DNA of 64,000 nucleotides from Pseudomonadales bacterium (GTDB lineage: Bacteria; Pseudomonadota; Gammaproteobacteria; Pseudomonadales; Azotimanducaceae), in the NCBI GenBank assembly GCA_029941905.1, contig JAPYTQ010000029.1, forward strand, positions 1,659 to 65,658, in the 5' to 3' direction. Position numbers and translations under genes: made by a program. Below the pieces are notes generated by a model. That model searched no databases, was not told the origin of the DNA, and was given only the letters and a program-made list of their open reading frames with translations. Of the stretch, positions 6,718 through 38,257 are shown in pieces; position 1 is the stretch's first letter, and every line of letters starts with the position of its first letter.

Positions 6718-6856
6718 GTTGAGTAGATAGTTTACCCTATGAAGTTGATCTTAACATTGGTACCAAAGCGCCCCCTTGTCTTTTCAGGTGAGTCGTTTTG
6801 TTGGATAATCCATTAACGCGTACGGGACCCGATAAATAGCTCAAGGAAATCAAAAA

Positions 6857-7198
6857 ATGACCAAACAAGTTGATTGGTATTACTTCCGAAATGGATGAAC
6901 CACCTGCACTAAAGCATCCAAGTTCTTGGAAGCAGGCAAAGTGGAAATTAAAGAAAAAACTCCTGCCAGTAAGAAGCTGCAGGCCGCTGATGCGAAGCTG
7001 ATGCTGAAACAGGCTTCCCGGCTCATTGCCATGAAAGGCAAAAAGGTGGCTGAATTTCAGGGTGCAAAAGCGGTATCGAAAGAAGCGGTGGAAGCGACCC
7101 TGGGACCCACGGGCAACATGAGAGCGCCGACCATCAAGGTTGGCAAGACAGTGCTGGTTGGGTTCAATGAAGAAATATTTACCGACGTTTTCGGTTAG
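6857..7198 (+). CDS. ArsC/Spx-family thioredoxin-fold protein, candidate selenoprotein (TGA 6896-6898 read as Sec)
   Basis: ATG 6857 is preceded by AAGGAA with an 8-nt spacer. The product is MTKQVDWYYFRNG-U-TTCTKASKFLEAG..., 113 aa. The U aligns with the first Cys of the N-terminal CxxC of ArsC-family proteins. The ORF track shows only the TTG-started remnant 6926..7198. Confidence 0.7.
6914..6933 (+). other. candidate bacterial SECIS hairpin
   Basis: GC-A-UCCAA-GUUC-UUGGA-A-GC, folded by hand. It starts 15 nt after the UGA and has an apical GU-containing tetraloop. Confidence 0.4.
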
Positions 7199-7518
7199 AA
7201 CAGTGCGTCGTTAAGTGCAGCAAGCCAGGCCAGCAGCAGAATAAGGACTATCAACAGGTTTATTCTGACGATTAACCCGTAGCGTTTTTTTTTCTGTAGA
7301 TCCTGGGCGTCGGTTTGATAAACCTTACACACTAAGGCATCGAGCATAATGACGACGAATGTTATTGGCACCAGTGCCGGGATCACTGCGCCCAGAATGA
7401 TGTCCCATCCTCTCGGATTCCAGCTGGGTTCAGTGAAAGGCAGAATCAACAGGAACATAAAAGCCAGACCATGGAGCATGTTCCTGAGCAACCCCATTGA
7501 TTTCCATTTTTCTAACAA
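7195..7518 (-). CDS. small integral membrane protein, unknown function
   Basis: Three hydrophobic segments. The start is uncertain (TTG 7518 or ATG 7497). Contains an A9 run (7285-7293) encoding KKK. Confidence 0.45.
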   Translation of the reverse strand: MLEKWKSMGLLRNMLHGLAFMFLLILPFTEPSWNPRGWDIILGAVIPALVPITFVVIMLDALVCKVYQTDAQDLQKKKRYGLIVRINLLIVLILLLAWLAALNDALF

Positions 7519-7624: not shown

Positions 7625-10294
7625 GTGAAAAATTCCTTCACATTACTCATTGATGGCATGACCTGTAATCATTGTGAATCAACGGTGACCGGGGCGCTGG
7701 AACAACTCGGTGGGCAGGTCCGGGAAATAGATGCCGATACCGGAATTGCCCGTTTTGTATCAGATAGATGGATCCCGATTGATTCCGTAACGAATTCAGT
7801 TGAATCGGCCGGCTATTCCCTGAAAGCAGCATCGATAGCCGGTGAGCTCACCATCCCGGTGCAGGGAATGCAATTCGAAAAATGCCGGAAGCGGATTACT
7901 GGCGAGCTTCTGAAAATAGACGGCGTAGAGCGCGTTGTTGTACACCTGGACGCGAATCAGGTCATCGTATCAGGATCTGCAGATCTGTTGGCGATAATTG
8001 CGGGCATTAGGAATCAGGGATATGAAGTGGCCGAAACAGTTTCTGACGTCGAATTCCCCAAGCAGCCATCTGCAACTACGGTAGCATCGGCGAGTGAACA
8101 GGACTCGATTACCCCCACGAGGGAATCAGATTATTACCTGCAAATTCAAGGTATGTCCTGCGCCAGCTGCGTTTTAAGAGTGGAGAATACGCTTTCTGCT
8201 GTTCCCGGCGTCAGCGAAGCTTCAGTTAATTTTGCGGACGAAACTGCCTTTGTAAAAGGCGCCACCAGCCTGCAGGATCTGGTATCGGCAGTACAACGAT
8301 TAGGTTACGGCGCGGATCTGGTTGACCCGTCGGTTGATAAAGAACGGGTAATGATCGATCAGTTTAGAAAGGGAATTATTCGATCTGTTCTGGCTTTGGT
8401 TGGCGGCTCGCTACTCATGGCAGGGATGATGACCGGCTTGTTGCCGGGGATAGACAACAAAACCTTCTGGCTGATAACGGGCGTCGTGGTTTTAGGGTTG
8501 ATGGTATTTTCTGGTGGGCACTTTTATCGTAATGCGTGGCACTCAGCCAAATACTTCACCACGACCATGGACACGCTGATTGCGCTGGGAACAGGAACCG
8601 CCTGGTTGTATTCAATGCTGGTGATCATTGCGCCGATGCTTGTGCCTGAGGCCAGTCGGCACCTGTTTTTTGAAGCTGCGCTGTTTATTGTCGGTTTTAT
8701 CAACCTGGGTAAAAGCCTGGAACTCAATGCCCGGGGCAAAGCTTCCGGCGCCATTGAAAAACTGTTAGATTTGGCGCCTGATGAAGTCACCTTGCTGGTA
8801 AACGATGAGGAAACCCGGACTTCTCTACAACTCATCAAGGTAGGGGATTCGCTGCGGATTAAACCGGGTGACCGAATCCCCGTGGATGGCAGGATCATTG
8901 ATGGTTTCTCAAGTCTTGATGAATCGATGTTAAGTGGTGAACCCATTCCAGTTGATAAGCAGCCTGGCGACAGTGTGGCAGCCGGTACGATCAACCTGCA
9001 TGGCAGTTTTGTGATGCTCACCGAGCAGGTAGGTCGAGAAACCACACTGGCCAGAATGGTCAGCATGGTGAAACAAGCCCAGAACTCGAAACCCCCCATT
9101 GGCAAACTAACGGATTCAATTGCATCGGTTTTCGTCCCATTCGTGTTGCTGGTTGCGCTGGTGTGTATCGTTTACTGGGGCTTCCTTTCGTCTGACGGGG
9201 GCCTGACCCTCGTGATTGTTACCACCATGTCAGTATTGATTATTGCCTGCCCCTGCGCGCTCGGCCTGGCAATACCGATCTCCATTATGGTGGGCATCGG
9301 TCGGGGAGCGTCCCGGGGACTGTTGGTGCGTAACAGCGATGCGCTGCAAGCCGCGGCTGGCCTGGACACTATCGTACTGGACAAGACAGGCACATTGACT
9401 GAAGGAAAGCCGGAAGTCGTGGGTGTTTCGGTGTCACAGGGTTCTGATGAGAATCGGTTACTCGGCCTGGCTTACAGTCTGGAATCCTATTCCGAGCATC
9501 CACTGGCGAAGGCGGTTATCAATTACTGTGAACAACGCGGTATCAGTAAGCCAGTGGTCAGTGAATTCCGGATATCACCGGGTGGCGGCGTATCAGCCGA
9601 GGTCGATGGCGTGATGGTCCGGGCTGGGAACAGGCAATATCTAGTAGATTCCGGGATAGGATTTAGCCACCAGACCCAACCGGAAACAGGCACCGTCATT
9701 TATATTGCCGAAGGGTCGGAACTGCTGGGCAGCCTTGACCTGGATGACAAACTCAAGCCGGATTCCAAATCTGCCGTGGCTAAATTTCAGGCAAAGGGAA
9801 TCCATGTGGTTATTCTCTCCGGGGACAACGCGGCGAGCGTCAGCAAGGTTGCAGCACAACTCAATATTTCGGACTACCATGCCGGACTCACCCCTGAAGC
9901 CAAGTTGGAGAAGATCAGCGAAATGCAACGGGGTGGCCAAAAAGTGGCAATGGTGGGTGATGGCATCAATGATGCGCCCGCTCTGGGCATTGCAGATGTC
10001 GGTTTTGCGATGGGTGATGGCACCGATATCGCGATTGAAAGTGCGGATGTTGCCGTGGTTGGTAACCGATTGAGCCGGGTTGTCGAGGCGATCGAGATTT
10101 CCCGGCAAACCATGCGCAACATCTACCAGAATCTCTTTGGTGCCTTTGCCTACAATATTGTGTTGATTCCTGTGGCGGCCGGTGTCTTGTATCCCCTGTT
10201 GATCAGTCCGACATTTGCGGGCTTCGCCATGGCGATGTCGTCAGTGACGGTGGTGGCCAATGCTAACCGTTTGCGATTTGTCCGGCTGGACTAG
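7625..10294 (+). CDS. copA: copper-translocating P1B-type ATPase
   Basis: Three N-terminal HMA domains: GMTCNHC, a degenerate GMQFEKC, and GMSCASC. Also the CPC transmembrane motif, DKTGTLT, and the GDGINDAP hinge. Confidence 0.9.
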   Translation: MKNSFTLLIDGMTCNHCESTVTGALEQLGGQVREIDADTGIARFVSDRWIPIDSVTNSVESAGYSLKAASIAGELTIPVQGMQFEKCRKRITGELLKIDGVERVVVHLDANQVIVSGSADLLAIIAGIRNQGYEVAETVSDVEFPKQPSATTVASASEQDSITPTRESDYYLQIQGMSCASCVLRVENTLSAVPGVSEASVNFADETAFVKGATSLQDLVSAVQRLGYGADLVDPSVDKERVMIDQFRKGIIRSVLALVGGSLLMAGMMTGLLPGIDNKTFWLITGVVVLGLMVFSGGHFYRNAWHSAKYFTTTMDTLIALGTGTAWLYSMLVIIAPMLVPEASRHLFFEAALFIVGFINLGKSLELNARGKASGAIEKLLDLAPDEVTLLVNDEETRTSLQLIKVGDSLRIKPGDRIPVDGRIIDGFSSLDESMLSGEPIPVDKQPGDSVAAGTINLHGSFVMLTEQVGRETTLARMVSMVKQAQNSKPPIGKLTDSIASVFVPFVLLVALVCIVYWGFLSSDGGLTLVIVTTMSVLIIACPCALGLAIPISIMVGIGRGASRGLLVRNSDALQAAAGLDTIVLDKTGTLTEGKPEVVGVSVSQGSDENRLLGLAYSLESYSEHPLAKAVINYCEQRGISKPVVSEFRISPGGGVSAEVDGVMVRAGNRQYLVDSGIGFSHQTQPETGTVIYIAEGSELLGSLDLDDKLKPDSKSAVAKFQAKGIHVVILSGDNAASVSKVAAQLNISDYHAGLTPEAKLEKISEMQRGGQKVAMVGDGINDAPALGIADVGFAMGDGTDIAIESADVAVVGNRLSRVVEAIEISRQTMRNIYQNLFGAFAYNIVLIPVAAGVLYPLLISPTFAGFAMAMSSVTVVANANRLRFVRLD

Positions 10295-10417: not shown

Positions 10418-11056
10418 ATGGTAGAGCCCGTTCATATTGAGGTATTTACAGACTACGTCTGACCCTGGTGTTATCTCAGTACCGTGAGTATTGAAAAGCT
10501 AAGGCAGGAAGAAAACGTTACGGTATCCTGGTCCTTTTTCCCCCTTCATCCGGAAACGCCTCCTGAAGGCAAGTCTCTGTCTGACCTGTTTAAAGGTCGT
10601 GAATCCCAGGTGCAGTCTTTCCAGAACCAGATCAAATCTCTGGCCGAGAAAGAAGGGTTGCCTTACGGTGATCGCTCGATGACTTACAACAGCAGATTGG
10701 CACAGGAACTGGGTAGCTGGGCTGATACGCAGGCAAATGGTGAGGCTTTACACGACGTACTGTATCGATCTTACTTTGTCGACAACGTGAATATCTCGGA
10801 TATCGATGTACTGGTCAGGCTGGCGGGGCAGGCAGGGTTGAAGGAGGAAGAGGCGCGTGACGTACTGCAAGATCGCCGGTTCAGCCAAAAAGTCGATGAA
10901 GATTGGCAAAGAGCCCGTGGTATGGGCCTCAGTGGTGTGCCTACGTTTGTGAGCTCAGAATTGTACGTCGTCGGTTGCCAGACTTATGATGTGCTGATGC
11001 GCTTCCTGAGCCATTTGCGTAAGCTCAAGTCCGAGGCAAAAACGAATTCTGCCTGA
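10418..11056 (+). CDS. DsbA/FrnE-family thiol:disulfide oxidoreductase, candidate selenoprotein (TGA 10460-10462 read as Sec)
   Basis: ATG 10418 is preceded by AAGAGG with a 5-nt spacer. The product is MVEPVHIEVFTDYV-U-PWCYLSTVSIEKL..., 212 aa. The family motif is CPWC, and the U sits at the first Cys. The ORF track shows only the GTG-started remnant 10484..11056. Confidence 0.75.
10476..10494 (+). other. candidate bacterial SECIS hairpin
   Basis: UCAGUA-CCGUGAG-UAUUGA, folded by hand: 6 bp including one G-U pair, with a 7-nt loop. It starts 13 nt after the UGA. Confidence 0.3.
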
Positions 11057-35764: not shown

Positions 35765-38257
35765 ATGGCAGAGCAGAAGTACGACACACCCAAATACGAT
35801 CCTGTTTCAACAGAGAGGGATATCCAGCGCTATTGGGAAGAAAATGGCACCTTCGAGGTGAGTGAAAACAGCGCCAGGCCAAAATTCTACTGCCTGGCGA
35901 TGTTCCCCTATCCCAGTGGCCAGTTACATATGGGACACGTTCGCAACTTTACCCTTGGCGATGTGATTGCCCGATTCCAGCGCCTGCAGGGTAAAAATGT
36001 CTTAAACCCCATTGGCTGGGACGCCTTTGGTTTGCCTGCAGAAAATGCAGCAATCAAACATAACACTGCCCCCGCCAAATGGACGCATTCCAATATTGCC
36101 AACATGAAAAAGCAATTTAAAACCCTCGGTTATTCTTATGACTGGAGTAGAGAATTTGCCACCTGCGATCCAGAATACTATCGCTGGGAGCAATGGTTTT
36201 TTACCAGAATGTTCAACAAGGGCCTGGTTTACAAGAAAGCCGCCTGGGTTAATTGGGATCCTGTGGACAAGACCGTATTGGCCAATGAGCAGGTGATTAA
36301 TGGCAGGGGCTGGCGCTCGGATGCATTGGTGGAACGTAGGGAATTGTCGCAATGGTTCGTAAAAATTACTGATTACGCAGAAGAGCTGTTAAACAACCTT
36401 GATAAACTTGATGGCTGGCCAGAGAAGATCAAGACCATGCAACGAAACTGGATTGGTCGTTCTGAAGGGGTAGAAATGACATTCCCCCTGCACGCCGCTA
36501 TCAAAGACGCGGGTGACGGAGTGACCGTATACACCACCAGGCCGGATACATTGATGGGCGCAACCTATCTCGCGGTTGCCGCCCAACATCCAATAGCCAG
36601 GGCAGCGGCAGAAAACAGCAGCAAACTGGCTGATTTTCTCCAGCAATGCAACAAGGGCAAGGTGGCTGAAGCCGATATGGCGAAGATGGAAAAACTTGGC
36701 ATGGACACTGGGTTCATTGCTGAGCATCCATTGACGGGGAAGGATGTCCCCATCTGGGTGGCAAATTTTGTCCTGATGGAATACGGCTCAGGTGCGGTGA
36801 TGTCCGTGCCCGGGCACGATCAGAGAGATTGGGAGTTCGCTAAAAAATACGGGCTTGATATCGTCCAGGTGGTTGAACCGAGTGCCGATGGTGGTGAATC
36901 TGCCAATATAGCCGTCGAGGCTTATGTTTCCAAAAAAGGCGTACTGGTTAATTCAGGTGAATTCGATGGTCTTGACTTCAAGGCCGGCTTTGATGGCATT
37001 GCTGACGCCTTAAGTGCAAGGCACCTGGGCGAAAAGCGGGTGAACTATCGTTTGAGGGATTGGGGTGTTTCCCGGCAACGATACTGGGGTTGCCCTATAC
37101 CCATCGTGAATTGCGACAAGTGTGGTGCCGTTGCGGTGCCGGACGCGGACTTGCCTGTTGTTTTACCGCCGGATCTCGAGCTGGATGGCAGTGGTTCGCC
37201 ATTGAAAAAAATGCCCGAGTGGTACGAGACCCAGTGTCCTGACTGTGGTGGCAAAGCGATTCGTGAAACCGATACCTTCGACACTTTTATGGAGTCGTCA
37301 TGGTACTACGCGCGGTTTGCTTCAAGTAATTTTAATGAAGGTATGTTGGACGAGCGGGCAAAATACTGGACATCCGTGGATCATTATGTCGGTGGTGAGG
37401 AGCATGCGATTCTGCACTTATTGTATGCCCGGTTCTTCCACAAGGTGATGCGGGATGAAGGGATTGTTGAATCCGATGAACCTTTTACCCGATTGCTGGC
37501 GCTCGGGATGGTGTTGCAAGATGGTGTCAAGATGTCCAAATCTGCCGGTGATTCGGGTGATCCCCAACATTTGCTGGACAGATATGGCGCTGATGCGGTT
37601 CGCATGGCGATGATGTTTGCCGCGCCGCCGGAACATTCATTTGAATGGTCAGAACACGGCGTTGAATCAGCCAACCGCTGGCTCAGGAATCGCCTCTGGC
37701 ATGCGGTCGATGAACATTTACAAAGGGACAATGTGCCGGATTTGGATGTGGCTTCTTTATCGGATACACAAAAAGAGTTACGCCGACGGGTACACGAGAC
37801 CGTAGCGAAAGCAGGAGATGATTATGGTCGTCGTTTAAGCTTCAACACGGTCATTTCCTCGGTGATGTCATTGATGAACCATGTGGATAAATTTAAGGAC
37901 GATTCTCCCCAGGGAAATGCAGTAATCCACGAGGCACTCAATGCCGTGATAGTGATTATGTCTCCCATCACGCCCCATATTTCCCATGAACTCTGGCAGA
38001 AAATGAACGAAGGTAAATTCGAAGACGTCGAATGGTTGTCGGTGGATGAATCGGCTTTGGCAAAGACCGTCGTAGCCATGGTAGTCCAGGTTAATGGCAA
38101 ACTTCGTGGTAAATTCGAGATCGCTGCTGATGCGTCCAGGGATGAAATGGAAAAAGCCGCATTGAGTGTTGAGAATGTCGACAAGTTTATTGAGAATAAA
38201 ACCGTCAGAAAGGTCATCGTGGTCCCCAACAAGCTGGTTAACTTCGTGGTGTCCTGA
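35765..38257 (+). CDS. leuS: leucine--tRNA ligase
   Basis: HMGH (HIGH motif), KMSKS, and LeuRS-specific WGCPIP. Confidence 0.95.
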   Translation: MAEQKYDTPKYDPVSTERDIQRYWEENGTFEVSENSARPKFYCLAMFPYPSGQLHMGHVRNFTLGDVIARFQRLQGKNVLNPIGWDAFGLPAENAAIKHNTAPAKWTHSNIANMKKQFKTLGYSYDWSREFATCDPEYYRWEQWFFTRMFNKGLVYKKAAWVNWDPVDKTVLANEQVINGRGWRSDALVERRELSQWFVKITDYAEELLNNLDKLDGWPEKIKTMQRNWIGRSEGVEMTFPLHAAIKDAGDGVTVYTTRPDTLMGATYLAVAAQHPIARAAAENSSKLADFLQQCNKGKVAEADMAKMEKLGMDTGFIAEHPLTGKDVPIWVANFVLMEYGSGAVMSVPGHDQRDWEFAKKYGLDIVQVVEPSADGGESANIAVEAYVSKKGVLVNSGEFDGLDFKAGFDGIADALSARHLGEKRVNYRLRDWGVSRQRYWGCPIPIVNCDKCGAVAVPDADLPVVLPPDLELDGSGSPLKKMPEWYETQCPDCGGKAIRETDTFDTFMESSWYYARFASSNFNEGMLDERAKYWTSVDHYVGGEEHAILHLLYARFFHKVMRDEGIVESDEPFTRLLALGMVLQDGVKMSKSAGDSGDPQHLLDRYGADAVRMAMMFAAPPEHSFEWSEHGVESANRWLRNRLWHAVDEHLQRDNVPDLDVASLSDTQKELRRRVHETVAKAGDDYGRRLSFNTVISSVMSLMNHVDKFKDDSPQGNAVIHEALNAVIVIMSPITPHISHELWQKMNEGKFEDVEWLSVDESALAKTVVAMVVQVNGKLRGKFEIAADASRDEMEKAALSVENVDKFIENKTVRKVIVVPNKLVNFVVS

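Follow-up and report, generated by a model that had tools for sequence, protein, structure and literature searches.

The gene at positions 6857-7198 (+) of a 64,000-nucleotide stretch of Pseudomonadales DNA (contig JAPYTQ010000029.1 of assembly GCA_029941905.1, positions 1,659 to 65,658 of the forward strand; hereafter the window) is a real selenoprotein-type gene for a small redox protein, shortened by gene callers. It very probably stands alone and encodes a 113-amino-acid (aa) cytoplasmic selenoprotein of the NCBIfam family NF041106, with selenocysteine (Sec, U) inserted at the UGA codon at 6896 by means of an mRNA hairpin. The gene is a member of an already known selenoprotein family, catalogued since 2008 and still widely mis-annotated.

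Gene structure and translation start

An AAGGAA Shine-Dalgarno (SD) sequence at 6843-6848 is followed, after an 8-nt spacer, by ATG 6857-6859. From this codon the frame runs to TAG 7196-7198 and is open save for one TGA, codon 14, at 6896-6898. Translated straight, the frame reads MTKQVDWYYFRNG, a stop at the TGA, and then TTCTKASKFLEAGKVE...; the predicted product of 113 aa is MTKQVDWYYFRNG-U-TTCTKASKFLEA..., in which the Sec codon lies within a G-U-T-T-C motif. The mechanically produced list of open reading frames (ORFs) holds only a 90-aa ORF for this locus, started from TTG (6926..7198). A first-pass annotation of the window, made from its letters, had described the same start, SD spacing, interrupted frame, product length and truncated ORF call, and the sequence and the ORF list confirm them.

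Related loci were taken from one scan of species-representative genomes, which returned at least 570 loci encoding relatives; the best 80 of these were kept. They come mainly from marine Pseudomonadales metagenome-assembled genomes (MAGs; Azotimanducaceae, OM182, K189A), with some Myxococcota and Acidobacteriota and one Spirochaete MAG. Across 82 homologous loci, a start codon stands at the position aligned with ATG 6857 in 71 (ATG itself in 56), and an SD-like motif is found 4-16 nt upstream of the aligned start in 69. The equivalent of TTG 6926 is CTG in 21 of the 82 loci, and an SD motif precedes it in 0 of 82. Since the upstream ATG and SD are conserved and the TTG is often CTG without an SD, the short 90-aa ORF call is an artefact. 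The features of the locus are as follows (coordinates, strand, feature, basis).

6781..6809, +, candidate sigma-70-like promoter, TTTTCA-17 nt-GATAAT (9/12 matches; tentative and weak)
6843..6848, +, Shine-Dalgarno AAGGAA (sequence; SD-like motif in 69/82 homologous loci)
6857..7198, +, full coding sequence of the predicted 113-aa ArsC-like selenoprotein, stop TAG 7196-7198 (NF041106 and conservation)
6896..6898, +, in-frame UGA, predicted Sec codon, residue 14, position 1 of UxxC (conserved TGA)
6900..6944, +, extended lower stem, CCAC/GUGG plus UGC/GCA (predicted in the window sequence only)
6905..6907, +, TGC, Cys17, predicted resolving Cys of U-T-T-C (invariant in the 60-sequence alignment A3)
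6914..6933, +, conserved core hairpin of the selenocysteine insertion sequence, SECIS (fold, covariation, invariant wobble bases)
6926..6928, +, TTG taken as start by ORF callers, an internal Leu codon, residue 24 (within the SECIS 3′ arm)

The promoter-like site at 6781..6809 is not above chance, with 1 seen against 1.2 expected in shuffles.

Conservation of the UGA codon

In the U column, TGA is present in all 80 genome loci (80/80) and in two metagenome contigs. Among 83 aligned loci it is found in 82, and the lone exception, the Cys-form locus L002, has TGT. The codon is embedded in a conserved context, W-Y-Y-x-R-x-G-U-T-[TSG]-C, in which the amino acids W-7, Y-5, R-3, T+1 and C+3 are invariant and their wobble bases are free to vary. 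Judged from the alignment of sequences, such invariant residues with variable third bases are the mark of translation and selection to either side of the TGA. The TGA, the upstream codons and the hairpin described below are all found again in the related genome loci (80/80) and the two metagenome contigs, so the open frame upstream of the TGA is not a product of chance. Orthologs that start after the TGA and lack upstream conservation, one outcome that the first-pass annotation had set against its own proposal, are contradicted by the conservation of the 13 upstream codons, the start and the SD.

A search of a large protein collection found 147 relatives, most of them 78-91-aa fragments that start after the TGA (about 100 clusters). 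One entry, P0001, is an exact 85-aa fragment that traces to Joint Genome Institute (JGI) metagenome 3300001683, contig GBIDBA_10001151 (L003), where it was started from an internal GTG. These fragments and the 85-aa call are the mis-annotation by standard pipelines that had been anticipated for this locus. The sequence of GBIDBA_10001151 equals that of the window and carries the same TGA, L003 position 8522 corresponding to window 6896; as the window extends past the 59,390 bp of this contig, it comes from a different, longer assembly.

Eight “full-length” clusters (P0002, P0003, P0005-P0009 and P0011) carry W in the U column, as G-W-T-T-C. The DNA was checked for one of the eight, P0007, where the W is TGA (contig L001, 475-834); here the residue is a translation-table artefact, the contig probably having been translated with a TGA=Trp code. 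In all eight clusters the W apparently comes from TGA translated with an alternative code table, as confirmed for P0007. Mistranslation of TGA as Trp in protein sets derived from ENA/Logan hides the Sec codon.

Homologs with a true Cys in the U column are rare; it occurs in P0023 (G-C-P-A-C) and P0028 (G-C-T-A-C), and the Cys-form homologs are single uninterrupted ORFs. The UxxC motif has Sec (TGA) first and Cys in that column of the non-Sec homologs, L002 with its TGT included, in agreement with the earlier proposal that Sec takes the first position of a CxxC.

The SECIS hairpin

The hairpin starts 15 nt after the TGA. Its arms, 6914-6921 and 6926-6933, form 7 bp with one A.A mismatch, and its apical GUUC loop (6922-6925) lies 23 nt after the UGA. 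In a published model of the bacterial SECIS (bSECIS), the loop has 3-9 nt, the upper stem has 4-16 bp and the minimum free energy is at most -7.5 kcal/mol, with G then G/U within the first two loop positions and a UGA-to-loop distance of 16-37 nt (PMC13188914). The window element agrees with this model in its 4-nt loop, stem of 7 bp plus one mismatch, G-U start, 23-nt spacing and folding energy (-14.9 kcal/mol for a 63-nt structure). Both the hairpin and its placement in the SECIS range had been proposed in the first-pass annotation; sequence and fold uphold them, and the element is conserved with covariation.

To assess conservation, 81 distinct sequences were aligned without gaps over the stretch from the TGA to +60; in this alignment the stem occupies columns 19-26/31-38 (6914-6921/6926-6933). 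The 8-pair stem was specified by hand and then tested by pair counts. It is paired in 87.7% of cells, compared with 19-46% once the 3′ side is shifted by 1-3 columns. Changes on both sides occur in 4 of the 8 stem pairs, and the 29 compensatory cells compare with 9.5 ± 2.2 in column shuffles, of which 0 of 500 reach 29. A K-to-R replacement (AAG to AGG) is coupled with a synonymous UUG to CUG change in 10 of 10 cases, and a 5′-arm A-to-V replacement is accompanied by a 3′-arm A-to-T in 3 of 3. The loop bases G, U and U are invariant across the alignment. Codons +7, +8 and +10, which lie in the stem, have invariant wobble bases in 79 of 79 sequences, and the wobble base varies freely at Lys and Leu codons in other parts of the gene that are no less conserved (for example Lys +46, A39/G40).

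The single available Cys-form locus lacks an equivalent hairpin (z about 0). The extended lower stem is not conserved, being absent or different in loci L040, L063 and L075, and was not recovered by RNAalifold, which de novo also gave a spurious 2-bp helix.

The stretch encoded by the SECIS, A-S-K-F-L-E-A (window 6908-6934), is nearly invariant in Sec forms (alignments A2/A3) and relaxed in Cys forms, reading V-N-A-Y-L-A-T in P0023 and A-T-R-F-L-D-E in P0028. This pattern suggests that RNA structure constrains the sequence of protein helix 1.

Family, fold and proposed mechanism

For scoring with hidden Markov models the U of the product was read as C. NF041106, “ArsC family (seleno)protein”, matches with 112.7 bits (curated cutoff 85, E = 1.2e-32), residues 5-108 lying on profile positions 1-107 of 107. 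The NCBIfam Spx models fall below their cutoffs (TIGR01617, 31.3 vs 75; NF002459, 20.9 vs 123; NF009210, 15.6 vs 159), and the homolog P0011 carries a precomputed match to Pfam PF03960. A family profile of 60 full-length members, searched against the PDB, matched ArsC-family 2m46 (E = 3.1e-8), Spx 1z3e (1.4e-6) and YffB 1rw1 (2e-3). The C-T-[ST]-C motif of Spx and 2m46 is matched by U14 and C17, and the R-R-P loop of Spx by R89-A-P; the UGA column aligns to Spx Cys10 and the YffB Cys, and Cys17 to Spx Cys13. Aligned by hhalign, Escherichia coli YffB matches over its full length (106 columns, E = 1.6e-5), and E. coli ArsC over 24 N-terminal columns, stopping at residue 31 (E = 0.19).

The natural Cys form P0023 (54% identical; locus L002, 10001-10342) was modelled with AlphaFold2 in place of the window protein. 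The model has a mean predicted local distance difference test score (pLDDT) of 94.6 and a predicted template modelling (TM) score (pTM) of 0.86. In it, beta-1 spans residues 6-9, helix 15-27 has the CxxC at its N-terminus, and a beta-hairpin is predicted at residues 55-68 where Spx, ArsC and YffB have a mainly helical insert. Of the 17 top Foldseek hits in the PDB, 16 are Spx, ArsC or YffB proteins. On the strength of this model, the NF041106 family may have a distinct sub-domain architecture that no solved structure represents. A signal peptide was not found in the 113-aa product.

Within the ArsC/Spx/YffB thioredoxin-like superfamily, NF041106 represents a divergent branch. The window protein has its nearer kin in Spx and YffB, arsenate reductase being more distant, and “ArsC” is a label at the level of fold only. 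With that qualification, the first-pass assignment to an ArsC/Spx family is supported by the NF041106 score above cutoff and the profile homology to Spx and YffB; the window protein stays under the PF03960 threshold.

The family listed in the Global Ocean Sampling (GOS) selenoproteome as “Arsenate reductase 2 (cd03032), UxxC”, here equated with NF041106, agrees with the window gene in several respects: Sec leads its UxxC, a bSECIS stands immediately behind the UGA, its hosts are marine bacteria, and it has Cys homologs; there is no substantive difference, and the window gene is a member. Spx, the redox-sensing RNA-polymerase-binding regulator of Bacillus subtilis (1z3e, 6gho), has a C-T-S-C that matches U-T-[TS]-C column for column and an R-x-P loop that aligns near the C-terminus, and Spx structures are top Foldseek hits. 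However, Spx has 131 aa compared with 113 aa here, the window protein lacks the Spx C-terminal tail, the TM score is only about 0.5, the middle sub-domain here has a predicted beta-hairpin, and the hosts here are mostly Gammaproteobacteria. YffB (E. coli b2471; Pseudomonas PA3664, 1rw1), a putative thiol reductase, is similar in length (118 aa) and has a Cys aligned to the Sec, but the E. coli protein has C-D-T-I, a single Cys with no resolving partner, is not a selenoprotein, and gives a weak PDB profile match.

The glutaredoxin-coupled ArsC of E. coli/R773 shares the superfamily label and, over the 24 aligned columns, its catalytic Cys12 with the position of the Sec. In contrast, the alignment ends before the Arg60/Arg94/Arg107 triad, which has no demonstrable counterpart here, and TIGR00014 gives no match at E <= 1 for the window protein. 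The true ArsC family with Sec in selenoproteome catalogues is UxxS, whereas the motif here is UxxC (PMC2398784, PMC13188914). Nor are ars genes (arsR, arsB, acr3) found near the gene in the window or in its relatives. Arsenate reductase proper was set aside on the hhalign E value, the lack of an ars context and the UxxC in place of UxxS, and the name is not justified.

From the gene structure, the family membership, the conservation of UGA and hairpin, the pairing of Cys and Sec in one column and the position of the motif in the Cys-form model, we infer Sec insertion, SelB binding and a catalytic cycle. Translation would start at ATG 6857, and the ribosome would pass UGA 6896 without terminating. 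The mRNA hairpin 6914-6933 would recruit SelB with Sec-tRNA(Sec), making selenocysteine residue 14. At the N-terminus of helix 1, U14 would stand where the attacking residue of a CxxC redox motif classically lies, paired with Cys17, and the protein would cycle between selenol/thiol and selenenylsulfide as an oxidoreductase of the thiol-disulfide type. A cytoplasmic selenol/thiol oxidoreductase, with Sec attacking and Cys17 resolving, is the best-supported mechanism.

Alternative readings of the in-frame UGA

The short forms reported by ORF callers and public annotations (6926..7198, the 85-aa JGI call, the roughly 100 clusters of 78-91 aa) are what would be expected if the TGA were a true stop and the gene a shorter downstream ORF, begun at TTG 6926 or at the JGI GTG, to which the 13 upstream codons do not belong. 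This is very unlikely indeed. The upstream codons are conserved as protein with synonymous variation left free, and the Pfam, NCBIfam and PDB-profile matches begin upstream of the TGA and cannot do without beta-strand 1 and the CxxC. In 21/82 loci the downstream start reads CTG, and an SD precedes it in 0/82, whereas the upstream ATG and SD are conserved, and the shortened product would be without its entire active site. A related proposal keeps the stop and treats the 13-codon ORF as a regulatory leader peptide, with the hairpin as a control on whether the downstream ORF is re-initiated or attenuated. Leader-peptide attenuators do look like this, with a hairpin behind a short ORF, but an in-frame fusion of the two parts would be needed in every genome. 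The parts also join into a single, unbroken thioredoxin-like domain, whose beta-1 and CxxC lie upstream of or at the TGA; the Cys-form homologs are uninterrupted single ORFs, and there is no conserved downstream start or SD. We consider a leader peptide extremely unlikely.

It is also very unlikely that the UGA is read as a standard amino acid (Trp, Cys or Gly), by a code change or by near-cognate suppression and with no Sec machinery. Such a reading could appeal to the eight public clusters with W in the U column, and searches of the window and of the flanks of related loci gave no Sec machinery. The W, however, is TGA under an alternative code table (DNA checked for P0007 only), and natural homologs have Cys in the column, not Trp or Gly. 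Within the window 8 of 45 long ORFs end in TGA, 35765-38257 and 10484-11056 among them, which excludes a change of the genetic code and makes the recoding local, as the first-pass annotation had argued. Moreover, the fixed hairpin, the invariant G-U-U loop and the frozen synonymous sites are needs of SelB-dependent decoding and would be superfluous for passive read-through. The probability that the TGA arose through faulty sequencing or assembly, or marks a pseudogene, is negligible. Nothing beyond the existence of an in-frame stop speaks for this; the same TGA in the independent JGI assembly (L003) and in 80/80 loci across genomes and phyla excludes it, and purifying selection acts on the protein on both sides of the TGA.

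Several results weigh against decoding as Sec in an NF041106 protein, or against parts of that account. In the 64-kb window, E. coli probes detected no selA, selB or selD by tblastn, and ARAGORN reported no tRNA genes of any kind, tRNA-Sec included; SelA/B/D probes were likewise negative by tblastn in the ~20-kb flanks of 80 related loci (about 1.3 Mb), as was ARAGORN for tRNA-Sec in 60 related loci (L004-L063). This lack of Sec machinery in the window and flanks says little about the whole genome. Rfam gave no SECIS match in the whole window at gathering thresholds, nor over 6800-7250 at E <= 10, where only noise hits on the wrong strand appeared; this null result weighs little, as bacterial SECIS elements are poorly covered by Rfam. 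By itself the 28-nt core folds at -7.3 kcal/mol, just short of the -7.5 limit, and RNAalifold on its own recovers only the 3 invariant stem pairs from the 81 sequences, with a weak covariation term (-0.23). Some of the covariation may count few inherited events rather than many independent ones. As for the family, PF03960 scores the single sequence at 15.6 bits (E = 0.02), under the gathering threshold of 24, and the Foldseek similarity of the P0023 model to Spx, ArsC and YffB proteins is modest in numbers (TM 0.45-0.56, root-mean-square deviation 6-7 Å, best E = 1e-3). Finally, a conserved neighbor that would assign a substrate was not found among ORFs clustered within about 3.5 kb in the 82 loci, where the best cluster occurs in 14/82 and is absent from the window.

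Relation to catalogued selenoproteins

ArsC-like selenoproteins of Deltaproteobacteria were reported in 2006. The GOS selenoproteome lists “Arsenate reductase 2 (cd03032), UxxC”, counting 42 sequences with Sec and 238 homologs with Cys (Zhang and Gladyshev, 2008, Table 2; PMC2398784). A 2022 review has the entry “Arsenate reductase-like protein, COG1393, UxxC”, and a 2026 review lists an arsenate reductase-like selenoprotein family under NF041106 (ArsC_rel_Se_1). The family had been suspected to be known already, and these catalogues settle the point. Current understanding of Sec decoding is unchanged. The value of the locus is practical rather than conceptual, as a textbook case of selenoprotein genes damaged in public data, in which corrected calls restore a redox active site. 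A well-supported NF041106 member with a defined SECIS is also a reasonable start for expression and substrate screening.

The host is a gammaproteobacterium related to the OM182 clade. Its nearest species-representative genome in the collection, as measured by the selenoprotein gene, has at most 73% protein identity, and the best synteny with the window is found in OM182-clade MAGs. An origin in the Guaymas Basin hydrothermal plume is presumed from the contig prefix GBIDBA, which we take to denote a sample from that plume.

Gene neighborhood and a second TGA-containing gene

The neighbors of the gene are a 2-oxoglutarate (2OG)-Fe(II) oxygenase, a small membrane ORF, CopA and a DsbA-family gene. 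The last of these came to light when the window was scanned for other TGA-split frames with Cys, Ser or Thr near the TGA. Of the candidates only the DsbA gene survived; among the other 90 frames, the longest proved to be antisense junk or would extend the N-terminus of an ABC ATPase implausibly.

The DsbA-family gene (10418-11056, +) lies 3.2 kb downstream. Its ATG 10418 is preceded by GAGG, and its frame holds an in-frame TGA at 10460-10462, in D-Y-V-U-P-W-C-Y. ORF callers start the gene at GTG 10484, whereby the active site is lost. With U read as C, the product matches Pfam DSBA (PF01323) with 109 bits over profile positions 2-188 of 191. A hairpin of 7 bp with the loop CGUGA follows the UGA at 10476-10494, its loop lying 20 nt after the codon. 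In the syntenic homologs of L040, L043, L041 and L054 (66-70% identical) the TGA is at the same position in 4/4 and the hairpin is kept, with a stem-extending change in two of the four. “DsbA 1, pfam01323, UxxC” is a catalogued selenoprotein family (GOS selenoproteome, PMC2398784). On these sequence features, 10418-11056 is a probable second selenoprotein gene, and its conserved TGA in U-P-W-C with a hairpin counts in favor of Sec at 6896. The host thus probably uses selenium and has two or more selenoproteins inside 4 kb.

Between the two genes lies a copper-type P1B ATPase, CopA-like (7625-10294, +; TIGR01511, 584 bits), with several N-terminal heavy-metal-associated (HMA) domains. The order ArsC-like gene, 107-aa ORF (orf107), CopA, DsbA-like gene is common to the OM182-clade loci L040 and L043 only, and is partly kept in L004, L041 and L054. 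A link of both selenoproteins with copper handling is possible and is not general across the family; inference of function from the operon was dropped, because the CopA/DsbA/orf107 synteny is limited to 4-5 close relatives. A bolder proposal, which we regard as rather unlikely, takes the family as an almost obligately Sec-containing ArsC/Spx/YffB branch (TGA in 82/83 loci) with its own sub-domain architecture, a conserved basic surface (R11, K40, K60, K62/63, R89) and a substrate that is neither arsenate nor RNA polymerase. In OM182-like gammaproteobacteria it would form, with the neighboring Sec-DsbA and CopA exporter, a selenium-based cytoplasmic module for thiol or copper stress.

The small membrane ORF (7195-7518, -; 107 aa) faces the selenoprotein gene in convergent orientation, with a 4-nt overlap at the latter's stop codon. 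Neither Pfam nor NCBIfam gives a match for this ORF. Its product is small, hydrophobic and membrane-like, with about three hydrophobic stretches. The ORF is probably a real gene, as it is conserved in the same position in L040, L043, L041 and L054, with 44-54% identity.

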